From IMG/VR virus record IMGVR_UViG_3300020045_003390, positions 1 to 64,000 of that record: 64,000 nt of DNA, one strand, 5' to 3'. How positions within the stretch are numbered: the first letter of the stretch is position 1; each line of letters begins with the position of its first letter. The stretch is from a virus. Taxonomy: Duplodnaviria > Caudoviricetes. Below, in pieces: positions 3,644-58,886 of the stretch. The notes beneath the pieces are model-generated. The model was not told the origin of the DNA. It did no database searches and was given only the letters and a program-made list of their open reading frames with translations. The translations under genes and the position numbers were made by a program.

Positions 3644-4298
3644 AGACGAAGATGATGAAGATGACGGTTTTCCAAAACAAAAGAAAGTTCAGTATTACAA
3701 AAGAGCAATCCCTTCTTTTGAACTGATTGTAAATCTTAAAGATGAAATCCGTGATCCTAATCATTACTTTGAACTTGTTGAGGAAATGGATTCTTTGAGT
3801 GAAGACGATCTTGTGGACTTCAAAGTATCGTCGCCCGGAGGCCGCATCGACGGTTTAATTGGATTAATCAATGCTATCCGGGATTGCCAAGCACCTGTCA
3901 TTGGAACACTAGACGGCGAGGCTGCAAGTGCTGCTACTGTGCTGCTTCTTGTCTGTGATGGTATCCGAGTTAAGCCTTACTCTACGATGATGATTCACTC
4001 TGCTAGTTTTGGTGGGCACAATCATCAATCTAATATGGTCAGTCAATCTATTTTTGTGGACCAACAATGCAGAGAGATTCTCACTGACGCATACAAAGAC
4101 TTCTTGAGCACTGACGAACTTTCTCAGATATTCTCCGGCCTTGAAATCCGATTGAACTACGATCAGATTAACGAACGCCTTGAAAGCAGGGACCAGACTC
4201 GTAGACAACGTATGAAAGAAGAGATGGAAGCACGAGAGAAGGTTGGAACTACCCCCAAGAAAACCCCTCGTAAAAAGAAAGAACCCCCTCAGGAATGA
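3618..4298 (+). CDS. ClpP-like serine protease
   Basis: SSPGG, AASAATVL (catalytic Ser) and MMIH (catalytic His) motifs. Confidence 0.8.
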   Translation: MNTKFARNKDEDDEDDGFPKQKKVQYYKRAIPSFELIVNLKDEIRDPNHYFELVEEMDSLSEDDLVDFKVSSPGGRIDGLIGLINAIRDCQAPVIGTLDGEAASAATVLLLVCDGIRVKPYSTMMIHSASFGGHNHQSNMVSQSIFVDQQCREILTDAYKDFLSTDELSQIFSGLEIRLNYDQINERLESRDQTRRQRMKEEMEAREKVGTTPKKTPRKKKEPPQE

Positions 4299-4795
4299 AC
4301 AAACAATCTCTAGAGCGACTAAAAGAGCTTCTGGAGTACAACCCTGAGACTGGTAAGGTGACTATAAAGAAATCTAATCGTGTTTTGACATGTGATAACG
4401 ATGGAATTGTAGTCATCTTTGATTCTAAAGCCAAGCCTAAAACAAGAAAATATAAACTAGAGCGCATTGCTTACTACTTGGCTTTTTCTATCATACCAAG
4501 GGAAGAGCAAAAAGTTCTTCACAAGAATCTTGATACAGAAGATAATAGAATCCAGAATCTTTCCTTGGTGTCTAGGGCGGTTTTCAGGCAAATCAAAGAA
4601 GCTCATAGAAATCTTACTGGTGGGATACATATTATTCCTCATGCTGCAGATCAGTTCTCGTATATCTTGAAGTACTTTGATGGTGGAATTGAGAAGAGTA
4701 AGATTATCCAAGATATTGTTGTTGCTAGGAGGCAGCAATTAAAGTTGCAGTTGAAATATAGTAAAATACTCACAAAGTTCTGCGTATTTGACTAG
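4295..4795 (+). CDS. degenerate HNH-family protein
   Basis: LKELLEYNPETG N-terminus and LHKNLDTEDNRIQNL resemble HNH_3, with altered active-site residues. Confidence 0.6.
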   Translation: MNKQSLERLKELLEYNPETGKVTIKKSNRVLTCDNDGIVVIFDSKAKPKTRKYKLERIAYYLAFSIIPREEQKVLHKNLDTEDNRIQNLSLVSRAVFRQIKEAHRNLTGGIHIIPHAADQFSYILKYFDGGIEKSKIIQDIVVARRQQLKLQLKYSKILTKFCVFD

Positions 4796-4821
4796 ACTTT
4801 TAAGTATTTTGATGGTATAAT
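4793..4821 (+). promoter_or_regulatory. sigma70-type promoter
   Basis: TAGACT-17 nt-TATAAT with extended TG. Confidence 0.7.
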
Positions 4822-4827
4822 CAAGAT

Positions 4828-5024
4828 TAGCAATAATTCTATTAAAGCTTTACTCAAGTTCAATGACCTCCAGTGCGTATTCTGGGTCTTTAATCTCCTT
4901 TCAACTCAGGCTAACCACGCACTTCCTCCTTCTAATGAGCCACTGAGTAAAGCCTAACTGTCTGTGTTCGCTGTATGCTTGCATACGGTCTACGGCAGAC
5001 CCGGAACCATTACCGGGACTTTTT
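4828..5024 (+). ncRNA. putative structured small RNA with anti-SD tracts
   Basis: upstream promoter, 10-bp closing stem 4847-4856/4944-4953, several hairpins, terminator-like end; no ORF. Confidence 0.5.
5000..5024 (+). terminator. intrinsic terminator candidate
   Basis: CCCGG-aaccatta-CCGGG followed by ACTTTTT. Confidence 0.55.
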
Positions 5025-5170
5025 ACGACAACCGAGTACTAGGATTGACTAGGAACAGGCGGGTTCTGATTCACAAAACCATTTTAGGTCCCGATATGCA
5101 TCAGATGTGAAGACTCAAGCTTCATGGTTGTCATTTTACATCAACTCTTATAAGAATAATAACAAACATC

Positions 5171-5347
5171 ATGGCTATTTGCATCACTTGCCAAAGCTAC
5201 TACAGGCAATCTCAATACAACGCTTCACAGCAATGTGATGAGTGCGTTGATTCCTTGGAGGTTCCTCTTTTCGATGAAGAGGACACTCTTGAAGTTGAGC
5301 ACTTGCTCCATCCATCTGGAAAAACTCCTGCTCGTTTTTACGAGTAA
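5171..5347 (+). CDS. small CxxC...CxxC protein (58 aa)
   Basis: MAICITCQSYYRQSQYNASQQCDECVD...; fills the gap before 5392. Confidence 0.6.
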   Translation: MAICITCQSYYRQSQYNASQQCDECVDSLEVPLFDEEDTLEVEHLLHPSGKTPARFYE

Positions 5348-5391
5348 GTCTTAATAACATTCTAATACAACTAAACTTAAGGAACTAAATC

Positions 5392-5769
5392 ATGGCAGGT
5401 TACATCTCTTCTGACGTTCTTGACGCAGCACTTAATCTTATTGACACCGCAGGTAATAAACTAGTTATTTGCAGTGCGCTTCCAGTTACTTACGCTGAAG
5501 CTAACGCAACTTATGCACTTGGTAGCAAGGTGTCTCCTACTATTTCTGCACCGCAAGCACGTACACCGGATGGTCGTAAAGTTGTTGTGAGTGCTATTAC
5601 TGACGGTACTGTAACTGCTACGGGTACAGCTACGCACTTTGCAGTGCTTGACACAACTGGTTCGCGCTTGCTTGCAGCACAGGCATTGAATGCTTCACAA
5701 GCTGTTACTGCTGGTAATACTTTTACCCTGGCTGCTGTTGATATTGGTATCCCCGGCACTGTAGCTTAA
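5392..5769 (+). CDS. putative virion structural protein
   Basis: Ala/Thr/Gly-rich, beta-rich composition; strong SD. Confidence 0.6.
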   Translation: MAGYISSDVLDAALNLIDTAGNKLVICSALPVTYAEANATYALGSKVSPTISAPQARTPDGRKVVVSAITDGTVTATGTATHFAVLDTTGSRLLAAQALNASQAVTAGNTFTLAAVDIGIPGTVA

Positions 5770-5790
5770 TAGATTTAGAGGATTACCATT

Positions 5791-6189
5791 ATGGACCTCT
5801 ATACAGAAATTCAAGGTTTAGATGCGACTTTAGTCGCATCTCATGATTATCAGGTTATAGCTGATGTATTGTCAATCAATCGCAAGAAGGTTGTTACACG
5901 ACTTGGTGGTATTGGGCTTGTACTAGAAACCCTTGGTCCAACTGAGGGTGCTGCTTTGCTGGACGCCTTGGAGTTGCAAGCATCATCTGTACCTGCTCTC
6001 AAGTGGGCATGGATTCTGGTAAACCGTGGAGAATTGGACTTTGGTTCACCAGCTACTCGTGCAATGATTGATGCGCTAATCCCAGAGCCAAATCGAACAT
6101 TGCTTAAATCAGTAGCGGAAGTGCCAGACCTGATTAGTCCAGCACAAGTTGAAGTGGCTATGAAGAATGCAAATGGGACTAACAAATGA
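5791..6189 (+). CDS. hypothetical protein
   Basis: 132-aa ORF with SD GAGGA, coupled to next gene. Confidence 0.7.
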   Translation: MDLYTEIQGLDATLVASHDYQVIADVLSINRKKVVTRLGGIGLVLETLGPTEGAALLDALELQASSVPALKWAWILVNRGELDFGSPATRAMIDALIPEPNRTLLKSVAEVPDLISPAQVEVAMKNANGTNK

Positions 6190-6590
6190 GCACTACAACA
6201 CTAACAAAAGCCGTTAGAACCTTAATCGCAGCAGGTACATCTAATGCTGCTGGTGCTACCCTGCTTGGCACTCCGGTTGATTTGCGTACAGCATTGGGTG
6301 GTTTGCTTACTATTAAGACCACCAATAGCGGAACCCTTGGAGTTCAAGCTACAGTCAGTATTCTAGCTGCACATAATGCTGGCGCTACCCCCTCTGCAGC
6401 AATAGCAGGAACAGACTGGAAAACACTACATCAAGTCGGCACAGGTTTGGTCAGCGGTACGGTAAATGAATGGTCCTATCGTGTACCTGAAGGTGTAATG
6501 CATGTTAATGTAGCGATAACTGGTAATACTACTAACGCAGTAGTTTGCGAAGCATTCATGAGTGAGGTTTCTTCAGCAGCGAGTGCATAA
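6186..6590 (+). CDS. putative structural protein
   Basis: Ala/Thr/Gly-rich; ATGA overlap with upstream gene. Confidence 0.6.
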   Translation: MSTTTLTKAVRTLIAAGTSNAAGATLLGTPVDLRTALGGLLTIKTTNSGTLGVQATVSILAAHNAGATPSAAIAGTDWKTLHQVGTGLVSGTVNEWSYRVPEGVMHVNVAITGNTTNAVVCEAFMSEVSSAASA

Positions 6591-8288
6591 ATGGCTTTCG
6601 TAAAGATCAAAGTACCTCGTACTCGTCAGCCACAAGATGTATGTGGGATTGATTGGTCAAACCCGATTACAAAGCACTTAACTTCTGCATGGACGGGTGG
6701 AAGAAGCACTGGACTCTCAGACGCTCCTGCAGTTTTTGGGGCTAAGGCCATAAACCCTATTGGTGTTGGTGGCGCAGGTAACGGCACTTCTGATTTCACG
6801 AATCTACCGCTTAATGCTTTATCTAGCCGTGATCCTGATAATGTATTCGGAACGAAAATTGTTCTGATGACATTAGGTGCTGGTGGGTCCAGCAGATGTA
6901 TTGTTGGTGGTTCAACTCCCTCTACTGTTTGGCAATGCGATGGTGGAACTGTAGGTATTAGACAACCCGGTTCGTACACTCATTATACAAGTCCAACGAT
7001 TATGACAGCAGGTGAAACCTGCATGATTGCATTGGCGGTAGACGGTACAGCCATTGGTTCGGCAGTCAGGTGCTATAAAAATGGGATGTTGGTTGATAGT
7101 TCAACCACTGGCACCATTGCTTTGACTGGATTTGTTGGCATCCCCACGCTCGGAAGTGCTGGTGCTCAAGGACGTTATTTTGATGGTGTAATATATTTGC
7201 ACTTATCATTTGATACACCGCTGTCAACCAAGGAGGTTAAATCTTTATATGATAATCCTTGGCAAGTTTTCGAGCCAGAAGAGATTTCAGTATGGGTGCC
7301 AGATGTCGTAGCCAGTACTACAGACAGCCTCACCCCTAAGAGTATTGTGATTAGTGCACTAACATCAAGTGCACCGACCATTGGTCAGATTCATGTTCTG
7401 CCAGAGAAGGCTATCAACCTTTCACCTGTATCCACTACGTCTATAGGAATTAGTCAAGTTCACCAACTAGTTGGCGGCACTATTAATTTAGGTGCAACAA
7501 CAGTAGCCAATCCAGCAATTGGACAAGCACATGCACTGATACCACAATCGGTAAATCTGGGTTCTCTAGGTGTTAGTTCTACGGCTGTTGCACAGGTACA
7601 TGCACTTGTAAGAAACAATCTTACTATTTCTTCTGTAGTTACCACTCCAGCTATATTTAGTCAGGCTCATACACTTACTGCTCAGGCTACCAATCTAAGT
7701 GCAATTACAGTAGGTCACCCTGCGTTAACTTCTGCATCAAATGTAAATAATTTGAGCGGAAAGAGCATTGCACTTGAAGCGGTGCAGATTACCAAACCTA
7801 GTATTGAACAAATACACATACTGACAGGTCTTGGTGTTAGTCTTAATAATCTGACCACTACAAAACCAGAAATTGGTCAGATTCATGTACTTCCTGCACA
7901 GCCGATTACTCTTTCGGAATCTGTAGTTAGCAAGCCAGATTTAACCTCTCTCGCTAACACAGATAACTTGTCTACAAGAGATATAGTCCTAGGGGCATTC
8001 ACTGCAAGTAATCCTATAGTTGGACAGGTACATATTTTGGTTGGTAGGCCGCTTGTTACAGGTTTAGTGCAAGCACTTACACCTATGATTGGTCAAGTTC
8101 ATGGGTTAACATCAAGGAGTATTGTTCTGGGTTATTGGGGGGTAAGCAATCCTACTCTATCTGGTTCACCAGTTCCACCACCCGGCGTTACCACACACGT
8201 AGAGTTTATTTTTTCGGAAGTTGTAGATGACAAAGTAATGGTAGTTCTACAAGATGACGTTATCCAAACAAATATTATCTGGAGATGA
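6591..8288 (+). CDS. fibre-like protein: LamG/ConA-like N-domain plus 23-aa QxH repeats
   Basis: YKNG.LV...LG...YFDGVIY...PLS..EV..LY.NPW motif of LamG-like domains, then about 12 tandem repeats. Confidence 0.65.
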   Translation: MAFVKIKVPRTRQPQDVCGIDWSNPITKHLTSAWTGGRSTGLSDAPAVFGAKAINPIGVGGAGNGTSDFTNLPLNALSSRDPDNVFGTKIVLMTLGAGGSSRCIVGGSTPSTVWQCDGGTVGIRQPGSYTHYTSPTIMTAGETCMIALAVDGTAIGSAVRCYKNGMLVDSSTTGTIALTGFVGIPTLGSAGAQGRYFDGVIYLHLSFDTPLSTKEVKSLYDNPWQVFEPEEISVWVPDVVASTTDSLTPKSIVISALTSSAPTIGQIHVLPEKAINLSPVSTTSIGISQVHQLVGGTINLGATTVANPAIGQAHALIPQSVNLGSLGVSSTAVAQVHALVRNNLTISSVVTTPAIFSQAHTLTAQATNLSAITVGHPALTSASNVNNLSGKSIALEAVQITKPSIEQIHILTGLGVSLNNLTTTKPEIGQIHVLPAQPITLSESVVSKPDLTSLANTDNLSTRDIVLGAFTASNPIVGQVHILVGRPLVTGLVQALTPMIGQVHGLTSRSIVLGYWGVSNPTLSGSPVPPPGVTTHVEFIFSEVVDDKVMVVLQDDVIQTNIIWR

Positions 8289-8289
8289 C

Positions 8290-8640
8290 ATGAGTATTAT
8301 TACTAGAGTTAGAAACAGCACTAAGCGAATCACCTTCAACTGGTCAGTGGTGAGTGACAAAGTAACCATTCCGCTTGATCTTTCTGGCATGACTTTGCAG
8401 ATGCTGGTTGATACAGAAGATGTAGAGTCAAATCCAGCTAGCCCCTTGCGTATTGCGACAATCGATGGTATAATTACAGATGCAACAAATGGGGAAGCAT
8501 ATTTCCCATTGACAACAACCATAACTGGAACTATCCAGAGATTGTTCTTTGAGGTGTGGGTTGCTGACACTAACAGTGAATCGTATCCGATTGATTCGGG
8601 GAGTTTGATTGTTGTAGGTAGCTTGAAAGAAAATCCGTAG
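8290..8640 (+). CDS. putative structural/adaptor protein (BppU-like beta fold)
   Basis: PLDLSGMTLQM...ITDATNGEAYFPLT...FFEVWV pattern; ATG at 8290. Confidence 0.45.
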   Translation: MSIITRVRNSTKRITFNWSVVSDKVTIPLDLSGMTLQMLVDTEDVESNPASPLRIATIDGIITDATNGEAYFPLTTTITGTIQRLFFEVWVADTNSESYPIDSGSLIVVGSLKENP

Positions 8641-8692: not shown

Positions 8693-8768
8693 GCCGATTT
8701 AGCTCAGTTGGTAGAGCAACCGCCTTGTAAGCGGTAGGTAGTGAGTTCAAATCTTACAGTCGGCACCA
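8693..8768 (+). tRNA. tRNA-Thr(UGU)
   Basis: cloverleaf GCCGATT...AGTCGGC-A-CCA, anticodon loop CTTGTAA, TTCAA T-loop. Confidence 0.95.
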
Positions 8769-22074: not shown

Positions 22075-22103
22075 TTGACATAATCTAAAACCTCTGTTAT
22101 AAT
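22075..22103 (+). promoter_or_regulatory. consensus sigma70 promoter
   Basis: TTGACA-17 nt-TATAAT with extended TG. Confidence 0.8.
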
Positions 22104-22137
22104 CCTCCTTTAGCTCGACGGCTTTAGGGGGATTTTT
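22102..22137 (+). terminator. intrinsic terminator after the tail tube gene
   Basis: ATCCTCCT...AGGGGGAT hairpin followed by TTTT. Confidence 0.55.
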
Positions 22138-22161
22138 CATTTGTACTGCTGAATAATTCTC

Positions 22162-58595: not shown

Positions 58596-58886
58596 TTAAC
58601 TCACATGCGGTGTAACATACATCAACAATTCAATATCATCCCGAATTAAAATCTCCGGTACTTCTTCATGAATATTAGAGATTTGATACCCAAGATCATA
58701 GTGGCTTTTCTTTTTCGCTGGAATCTCCACCCCAACAATCCAATAATCCCTATCAGAATCATACCAAGGACTTGCATAATCTAAATCATCGTTATCAAGC
58801 ATTTCATCGACTTCATCCAAAATATCTTCTGGAAGGTCTTTATACTTTACTCCGTATATCAACTTAGCTTCAATATCAATACTCAT
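58596..58886 (-). CDS. hypothetical protein
   Basis: 96-aa ORF with SD AGGAGG. Confidence 0.65.
   Translation of the reverse strand: MSIDIEAKLIYGVKYKDLPEDILDEVDEMLDNDDLDYASPWYDSDRDYWIVGVEIPAKKKSHYDLGYQISNIHEEVPEILIRDDIELLMYVTPHVS

Follow-up and report, generated by a model that had tools for sequence, protein, structure and literature searches.

A conserved phage RNA domain that displays anti-Shine-Dalgarno-like tracts ahead of a small zinc-ribbon gene

Repeated anti-Shine-Dalgarno (anti-SD) motifs are carried in the loops of the cuckoo, or alpha-r14, small RNAs (sRNAs) CcsR1-4 and NfeR1 of Alphaproteobacteria (PMC4615179, PMC8034643), and C-rich loops of the RNAIII type have been reviewed alongside them (PMC4615179). 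Among phage RNAs, the c4 antisense RNA of P1 and P7 (RF01695) targets specific sites in its own transcript (PMC12197685), and noncoding RNA candidates from 5' untranslated regions have been described in the Pseudomonas phages PAK_P3 and phiKZ, one of them conserved within its genus (PMC10914365). Here, we describe a covariation-supported RNA domain of ~180 nt in a freshwater phage. The window, i.e., the whole stretch of 64,000 nt that was analyzed, is the first 64 kb of a 79,311-bp IMG/VR virus record (IMGVR_UViG_3300020045_003390) estimated to be 97% complete. The RNA occupies a 375-nt gap between an HNH_3-like open reading frame (ORF; 4295-4795) and a 58-aa CxxC...CxxC ORF (5171-5347), here called the zinc-ribbon ORF. 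We regard it as a new RNA family whose likeness to the cuckoo, c4 and other sRNAs lies only in the proposed mechanism, which is of a known kind. Its promoter, helices and exposed tracts are the following.

4793-4821, positive strand: sigma-70-type promoter from a promoter scan, TAGACT (4793-4798), 17 nt, TATAAT (4816-4821), with 10 of 12 consensus matches.
4847-4953, positive strand: 5' domain of the RNA, helices P1 to P4, from RNAalifold and pair counts; all four covary in the family-wide alignment.
4847-4856/4944-4953, positive strand: P1, the closing stem.
4858-4862/4936-4940, positive strand: P2, separated from P3 by a large internal loop.
4865-4871, positive strand: tract A, GACCUCC, on the 5' side of the P2-P3 internal loop; unpaired probability 0.71-0.89.
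4872-4878/4917-4923, positive strand: P3, AGUGCGU/ACGCACU, nested; 7 of 8 pairs compensatory.
4881-4887/4904-4910, positive strand: P4, with a 16-nt apical loop.
4888-4903, positive strand: loop B, CUUUAAUCUCCUUUCA, the apical loop of P4, with the core CUCCUUUC; unpaired probability 0.82.
4924-4933, positive strand: tract C, UCCUCCUUCU, on the 3' side of the P3-P2 internal loop; unpaired probability 0.71-0.84.
4961-4999, positive strand: P5/P5a hairpin, outer stem 4961-4967/4992-4999, inner stem 4970-4977/4982-4989.
5000-5017, positive strand: P6 hairpin, CCCGG-AACCAUUA-CCGGG; 4 of 5 pairs compensatory, conserved family-wide.

On the positive strand, the 196-nt stretch from 4830 to 5025 folds at -55.2 kcal/mol (z = -3.9), and none of 200 shuffled sequences was as stable; the fold of the negative strand was not significant (z = -0.6). 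Close relatives came from seven viral contigs found through the HNH-like protein encoded upstream. Exact-pattern scans added one viral copy, identical to the type in contigs L057 and L058, and eight metagenome contigs, and a covariance model built from the seven sequences recovered 15 copies, 14 of them distinct, at 152 to 197 bits. Searches with 17-mer and 16-mer loop patterns returned mostly chance matches or ribosome-binding sites on the negative strand and were filtered by context. In the alignment of the 14 variants, 95.8% of the cells were paired, as opposed to 87.5% in shuffles, and 17 pairs had changed on both sides, a number reached by none of 500 shuffles. When the partners were slid by 1 to 3 columns, only 35-42% of the cells were paired. 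Covariation had been named beforehand as one of the checks by a sequence-only reading of this DNA, which had proposed a structured positive-strand RNA behind a promoter, and both the fold and the covariation agree with that proposal.

In the P5/P5a helix, 100% of the cells were paired even as the inner stem was swapped in relatives for wholly different yet complementary sequences (5 of 6 inner pairs compensatory). G-U pairs were frequent (for example, in 14 of 14 variants at one P5 pair) and would leave A-C mismatches on the opposite strand. Because of these pairs and the orientation of the promoter, the positive strand is the RNA strand.

The same reading had picked out sequence elements across the locus, including TCTCCTTT (4894-4901) and TTCCTCCTT (4923-4931), and all of them are present at those positions. 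Two of the structures it drew from them were revised. AGUGCGU and ACGCACU, suggested to form a kissing loop or pseudoknot, make up the ordinary nested and covarying helix P3 instead, and the small hairpin GAC..CCAG/CTGG.GTC shows no covariation, with two of its pairs broken in 10-11 of the 14 variants. A candidate tertiary pairing of the P6 loop with the J3/2 strand was dropped, since by eye it was not conserved in alignment A2.

Three pyrimidine-rich tracts lie outside the helices, A and C facing each other across the internal loop and B at the tip of P4. Their mean unpaired probability is ~0.8, compared with 0.44 for the whole RNA, which upholds the suggestion that the anti-SD-like tracts are exposed. 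They are invariant or nearly so in the 14 variants, while the stems drift. Tract A reads GACCUCC in 13 variants and GACCUCU in one, loop B is the same in all, and tract C, which can also be written C(C/U)CCUUCU within 4924-4933, keeps Y-Y-Y-UUCU (CUCCUUCU in most variants, CCCCUUCU in two and CUCUUUCU in one). The core CUCCUUUC of loop B resembles the 3' tail of 16S rRNA, which we take to be ...GAUCACCUCCUUUCU in many bacteria and ...CCUCCUUUCU in Betaproteobacteria. One sub-lineage (contigs L057, L058 and L063) has gained a further hairpin of ~60 nt between the promoter and P1 (L057:640-714), closed by AGCUUGGA/UCCAAGCU and carrying CCCUCCUU near its apex. Overall, the RNA presents a repeated, unpaired anti-SD-like motif on variable stems.

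The promoter is of the extended -10 type, with TG at 4813-4814 in the TGn form (TGGTATAAT, 4813-4821), and transcription is predicted to start near 4828. The motif TAGACTTTT...TG(G/T)TATAATCAAGA is near-invariant in all close relatives, and a comparable TGnTATAAT followed by CAAG is found in the phages DC31 and P26059A and in contig L321. Promoters of this class occur on both arms of the genome; therefore, the class gives no inference of timing.

At the other end, a discrete transcript of ~195 nt bounded by a terminator had been proposed, and this part of the proposal is not supported. The P6 stem covaries (CCCGG/CCGGG, GAAGG/CCUUC, GGCGG/CCGCC and GUCGG/CCGAC), and its loop has the consensus A-N-C-C-G-U-A-A, usually followed by ACU(A/U). 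The U-run that should follow a terminator hairpin is present in the window (T5 at 5020-5024) and in some variants only, and most relatives lack it. What is conserved in P6 is a structural element at the 3' end and not a terminator. In 9 of the 14 close variants, P6 directly abuts the A-rich leader of the 58-aa ORF without a U-run, and the remaining variants, including the window, carry unrelated spacers of ~45 to 120 nt after P6, some with terminator-like hairpins. Thus, the RNA is normally the 5' part of the ORF transcript. The spacer of the window does not fold significantly (z = -0.34). The elements flanking the RNA are listed below.

4295-4795, positive strand: HNH_3-like gene, 166 aa (Pfam HNH_3, phrog_99), the syntenic anchor that is always upstream of the RNA.
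5018-5140, positive strand: variable spacer outside the conserved RNA, present in the window and a few relatives and missing in 9 of 14 close variants.
5141-5347, positive strand: A-rich leader without an SD (~5141-5170) and the 58-aa CxxC...CxxC zinc-ribbon ORF (5171-5347), which always follows the RNA.

The zinc-ribbon ORF is conserved under purifying selection and encodes a protein that is acidic in its middle part and has an NPSGKT..FYD motif at the C terminus. It matched nothing in Pfam or PHROG, and a search of the Atlas returned hypothetical proteins only. A profile search found 137 cluster representatives, almost all of 56 to 88 aa. The ORF is essentially SD-less in 13 of the 17 members examined, with predicted leader pairing to the anti-SD of -1.4 kcal/mol in the window and -2.7 kcal/mol or weaker in those 13. 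Most SD-less leaders are 55-77% A (45% in L321), nearly free of G and of an (AAN)n type. The lack of an SD would be expected of an ORF that an anti-SD linked in cis would otherwise shut off. Of the exceptions, L272 and L323 have weaker SDs, and in L322 the SD of the ORF, AAAGGAGAUC, is a 10-nt complement of the RNA's own loop, the two being paired in the minimum-energy fold. In Curvibacter phage P26059A (L326:3595-3632, KY981271.1), the A-rich leader runs up to an ATG that is out of frame, behind which stands a 10-bp hairpin, and the annotated zinc-ribbon start lies 35 nt farther on; the annotation of this start codon may be in doubt.

By its portal protein, the window phage is closest to Limnohabitans phage DC31 (61.5% identity), whose record is filed under Pakpunavirus, and then to P26059A (51.7%). 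With filters off, model R1 matched DC31 at L074:8812-8997 (19.5 bits, E = 0.002-0.003 over 43-74 kb). The DC31 copy follows a homologous HNH-like gene, stands behind TGATATAAT-CAAG and precedes a homologous zinc-ribbon ORF and a tRNA cluster; its fold is significant (z = -4.7), and ten DC31-like viral contigs share the arrangement. In these RNAs, the motif CUUUAAACUCCUUUCA is the apical loop of P5a rather than of P4, on a stem that covaries. The same filters-off searches gave 53.9 bits for L321, 36.3 for L322 and 36.2 for L329, and 13-15 bits each for L328, P26059A (L326:3421-3568), L275 and L323. Every such match was the top one in its locus and lay inside the syntenic gap.

The arrangement was also followed from the protein, by examining the contigs of eight representatives of the zinc-ribbon profile matches. 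Seven of these lie after a gap or a contig edge, and one contig was too short to judge; the most divergent protein (P0100) alone has no gap. Where upstream genes are on the contig, they encode PhoH (in L328), a ClpP-like protease and an HNH-like protein of 162-178 aa, and the gap before the zinc-ribbon ORF measures 235 to 320 nt. A terminase gene lies downstream in L327, L329 and L330. In a family-wide, model-fitted alignment, 46 of 50 pairs were compensatory and 94% of the cells were paired, as opposed to 35-39% with slid partners; since such an alignment leans towards the model, we count it as support but not as independent evidence.

A loop with a CUCCUUU core is the one feature common to all sampled lineages. 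The full CUUU-N3-CUCCUUUC apical loop is found in DC31, L321, L322, L323, L325, L328 and L329, and the loops read as follows.

Window group, DC31 group and L328: CUUUAA(U/A)CUCCUUUCA.
L321: CUUUGAACUCCUUUCA.
L322: CUUUCGAUCUCCUUUCA.
L329: CUUUGAUCUCCUUUCU.
L323: UUCUUUCCUCCUUUCU.
L325: CUUUCACUCCUUUCA, plus ACCUCCUUUCA in a second hairpin.
P26059A: UUAACUCCUUUUAC.

This loop is placed on P4 in some lineages and on P5a in others; thus, selection acts on the displayed sequence and not on its position. Besides the loop, the lineages have in common the promoter type, the outer stem of P5 followed by UUCG, and P6 with its A-N-C-C-G-U-A-A loop. The window copy shows the whole set, namely a position between the HNH_3-like gene and a 56-70-aa CxxC...CxxC...NPSG ORF, a TGnTATAAT promoter, the apical CUUU-N3-CUCCUUUC loop at 4888-4903 and the P6 loop.

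Similar sequences were also seen away from this family. At 22095-22140 on the positive strand of the window, CCUCCUUUAGC...GCUUUAGGGGG and a U-run come immediately after a promoter-like site, TGTTATAAT; the stretch may encode a very short transcript that starts with an anti-SD-like sequence or may be just the terminator of the preceding gene. In unrelated viral contigs (L276:5553-5600, L207 and L233), the 17-nt motif CUUUAAACUCCUUUCAG forms the loop of an intergenic hairpin of 7-8 bp, with AACCUCCUUGGAGGGAG in the same region and no zinc-ribbon ORF nearby, and could be due to chance.

No described RNA family accounts for the locus. At the gathering threshold, Rfam 15 matched two tRNAs in the whole window and nothing at the RNA, in keeping with the sequence-only reading, which had recognized no family; at E values up to 10, the region 4500-5500 gave a single chance snoRNA match (E = 9.9), and c4 gave no cmscan match at the locus. 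ARAGORN found no tRNA or tmRNA there, and a blastn comparison of the region with 50,697 phage records found no match. The stable RNAs rnaC and rnaD of T4 were considered and have no similarity to model R1.

The closest likeness is to the cuckoo sRNAs. Both they and the phage RNA hold several copies of an anti-SD-like motif unpaired on a variable scaffold; in each case, the motif is fixed on drifting stems, the number of modules varies, and a gene for a small protein is co-transcribed. The cuckoo sRNAs, however, carry CCUCCUCCC in each of 2-4 adjacent simple hairpins without a multiloop (PMC4615179), whereas the phage RNA is a closed multihelix domain with two 3' hairpins, and two of its three tracts sit in the internal loop of that domain. 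Its motifs are CUCCUUUC, GACCUCC and CUCCUUCU, the first with a CUUU-N3 flank. It is also phage encoded, its small ORF is downstream rather than upstream, and it has no sequence or Rfam similarity to the cuckoo sRNAs. Staphylococcus aureus RNAIII, RsaE/RoxS and LhrC share the proposed mechanism, in which C/U-rich loops pair with the G-rich SDs of several mRNAs, but they use UCCC or CCCC motifs on unrelated folds and are chromosomal RNAs of Gram-positive bacteria, and the phage RNA matches none of them in Rfam.

The candidates of PAK_P3, which belongs to a phage group related to the window phage, and of phiKZ are likewise short structured RNAs behind promoters in lytic myophages (PMC10914365). 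They are set apart by their description, in which no anti-SD display is reported. A phage-encoded anti-SD mimic was found neither in a review of phage sRNAs (PMC12197685) nor in a literature search, the coverage of which was incomplete, so that absence is unproven.

The ribosome-binding sites of the window phage differ between its two arms. The complement of the loop matches many of them over 9-11 nt (UUGAAAGGAG), mostly on the minus arm (37650-65000), where extended GAAAGGAG(G) SDs prevail, whereas the structural genes (5100-37600, positive strand) have short or weak SDs. We compared 48 minus-arm genes with 36 late positive-strand genes, taking the first ATG of long nonoverlapping ORFs. The median energy of pairing with a generic anti-SD was -8.75 kcal/mol for the minus arm and -5.2 kcal/mol for the late genes, and the corresponding values for loop B were -9.5 and -5.5 kcal/mol (p ~0.003); Mann-Whitney p values for the difference between the two classes ranged from 0.001 to 0.006. 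The earlier statement that early-strand genes use AAGGAG/AAGGAGG SDs is thereby supported, the SDs of minus-arm genes, of the GAAAGGAG type, being much stronger than those of late genes (Mann-Whitney p ~1e-3). The best single site in the window is at the 96-aa gene starting at 58886 (11 + 4 nt), which is common to G027 only, and the top predicted loop sites of the window are absent as orthologous sites from G028, G029 and DC31. In DC31, the start region of the 66-aa gene JMMIOEOB_00061 (PQ492658.1 30941-30956, negative strand) is a perfect 14-nt complement of the DC31 loop (UGAAAGGAGUUUAA, then UAUG), and this gene has no homologue in phages of the window group.

The reading that we favor, with a probability of roughly 0.45, is that of a base-pairing RNA that sequesters the SD regions of mRNAs. 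The host RNA polymerase would make the ~180-nt noncoding domain from the strong extended -10 promoter, as the 5' portion of a transcript that in most cases runs on into the zinc-ribbon ORF. The P1-P6 fold would serve as a scaffold that keeps the 16S-tail-like pyrimidine tracts single-stranded, and these would pair with purine-rich SD regions and compete with 30S subunits, reducing the initiation of translation. Messages with long, strong SDs would be hit hardest, i.e., the nonstructural genes of the phage (GAAAGGAG type) and possibly host mRNAs, and late genes with weak SDs would be spared, as would the cotranscribed SD-less ORF. Accumulation of the RNA, its pairing with SDs in vivo, and the direction and timing of its effect are inferred.

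Several points weigh against sequestration of SD regions. To make a difference in the face of ribosomes, a competitor for SDs in general would need to be present in very large amounts. The sub-families have no orthologous phage mRNA target in common, the best sites varying by phage, and DC31-type RNAs have only one clear anti-SD loop. The SD asymmetry was built on a crude gene call, although one equally crude for both classes of genes. The 16S tail of the host is a presumed one, the general bacterial sequence given above standing in for that of a Limnohabitans or Curvibacter genome. Finally, conservation of the loop reaches past the anti-SD core into the CUUU-N3 flank, which generic SD pairing does not explain.

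That excess of conservation over what SD pairing needs speaks for a decoy, the tail-like loops titrating a protein that recognizes the 3' tail of 16S rRNA, with ribosomes reprogrammed or protected without any pairing to mRNA. Candidates for the protein are a ribosomal platform protein such as bS21 or S1, a factor for initiation or maturation, and an endoribonuclease toxin of the host with the anti-SD as its cleavage site. Within the 16S anti-SD, UCCUU is cleaved by MazF-mt3. CUUU-N3-CUCCUUUC does resemble ...GAUCACCUCCUUUCU, and some lineages have two or three copies of the motif in each RNA, much like protein-sponge RNAs. A nonribosomal RNA with a copy of the 16S anti-SD that is bound by bS21 is already known in the P6 mimic of the OLE RNA (PMC12054373), and bS21, bS18 and bS6 hold the 16S tail in Bacteroidia (PMC7797042). 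The OLE mimic, however, is base-paired to an SD-like strand within a bacterial RNA of ~600 nt, whereas the tracts of the ~180-nt phage RNA are single-stranded. In addition, Pfam and PHROG show no toxin-antitoxin or ribosomal protein gene adjoining the locus, and no candidate partner was identified. A decoy role seems rather unlikely to us.

The constant linkage of the RNA to the zinc-ribbon ORF behind one promoter, with neither terminator nor spacer between them in 9 of the 14 close variants, could instead point to a cis-acting 5' leader that stabilizes the transcript, controls translation of the SD-less ORF or modifies elongation or termination. The c4 RNA of P1 and P7 sets an example, in that it too is a phage RNA that lies in its operon's leader, has loops complementary to a ribosome-binding region and blocks the downstream ribosome-binding site (PMC12197685), and the paired loop and SD of L322 would fit the same scheme. 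Yet L322, with its 10-nt match, is the only member with anything like the c4 target boxes over the downstream ribosome-binding site. In the 13 SD-less members, the ORF leader offers the loops nothing to pair with, and no cis target is conserved. The distance from P6 to the start codon ranges from ~30 to ~150 nt through unrelated inserts, some with terminator-like hairpins, and a stabilizer or antiterminator needs no invariant 16-nt loop that moves between hairpins. We regard a purely cis-acting leader as improbable.

The strict co-occurrence of RNA and ORF, which holds across proteins only ~40% identical, also suits a ribonucleoprotein scaffold in which the CU loops or the P6 loop would bind the co-encoded zinc-ribbon protein, unrelated to SD pairing. 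This would account for the conserved A-N-C-C-G-U-A-A loop of P6, which SD sequestration leaves unexplained, and the CcsR anti-SD sRNAs are co-transcribed with the small RNA-binding protein CcaF1 (PMC8034643). Against it, the zinc-ribbon protein has no known RNA-binding domain by Pfam, PHROG or the Atlas, its structure model is of low confidence (pLDDT 63.7), and its acidic tail speaks against that part of the protein binding RNA directly; such a scaffold is distinctly unlikely. As for the absence of any functional RNA, with the tracts being SDs of micro-ORFs on the negative strand (one of the outcomes by which the sequence-only reading would have failed), a DNA-level element or part of a small coding gene, short ORFs do exist on both strands (27 aa at 4863-4946, positive; 27 aa at 4901-4984, negative), but both frames are disrupted by indels of 1-2 nt among the relatives, which rules these ORFs out, substitutions track base-pairing and not codons, G-U pairs fix the positive strand while the negative-strand fold is not significant, and the tracts lie within the negative-strand ORF instead of upstream of it, so that this explanation has very little left to it.

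Positive-strand genes of the window, from ~1.1 to 37.6 kb, encode PhoH, a ClpP-like protease and HNH proteins, followed by the structural proteins, and negative-strand genes extend from 37.6 to ~65 kb. A block of five genes (5392-8640), an insertion specific to the window phage, separates the RNA-ORF unit from a tRNA-Thr gene at 8693. In many relatives (L054, L055, L058, L110; L074:9453-9947), tRNA clusters lie just 3' of the unit; in L055, the first tRNA begins 10 nt past the stop codon of the zinc-ribbon ORF, and the cluster of the DC31 group stands behind a promoter of its own, TTGACA-N17-TACAAT. Where other relatives have tRNA genes, L056 (3490-3600), L059, L085 and L077 hold a conserved non-tRNA block of ~100 nt that starts with GAACACCUACCUUAGGGUGCC and may be another structured RNA. 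Loci L002-L052, reached through a downstream 125-aa protein, proved to be unrelated smaller phages without the RNA.

Because the covariation is strong, the neighborhood is fixed and two members, DC31 and P26059A, are cultured phages with known hosts, the function of the RNA is directly testable. The zinc-ribbon proteins, a family of 137 cluster representatives with no known function, are possible partners of it. More speculatively, and with the odds well against it, the RNA, with or without this partner, might imitate the 16S 3' tail and so switch the mode of initiation during infection, by masking strong SDs on mRNAs of the host and on early mRNAs of the phage or by titrating a factor that handles the tail, in favor of late messages with weak or no SDs, including its own ORF. 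If SD regions are indeed sequestered as we propose, lytic phages would possess a dedicated RNA that competes against the mRNA-docking sequence of the ribosome. It would be an RNA counterpart of the shut-off of classes of messages by the T4 proteins RegA and RegB and would add a new layer to the takeover of translation by phages.

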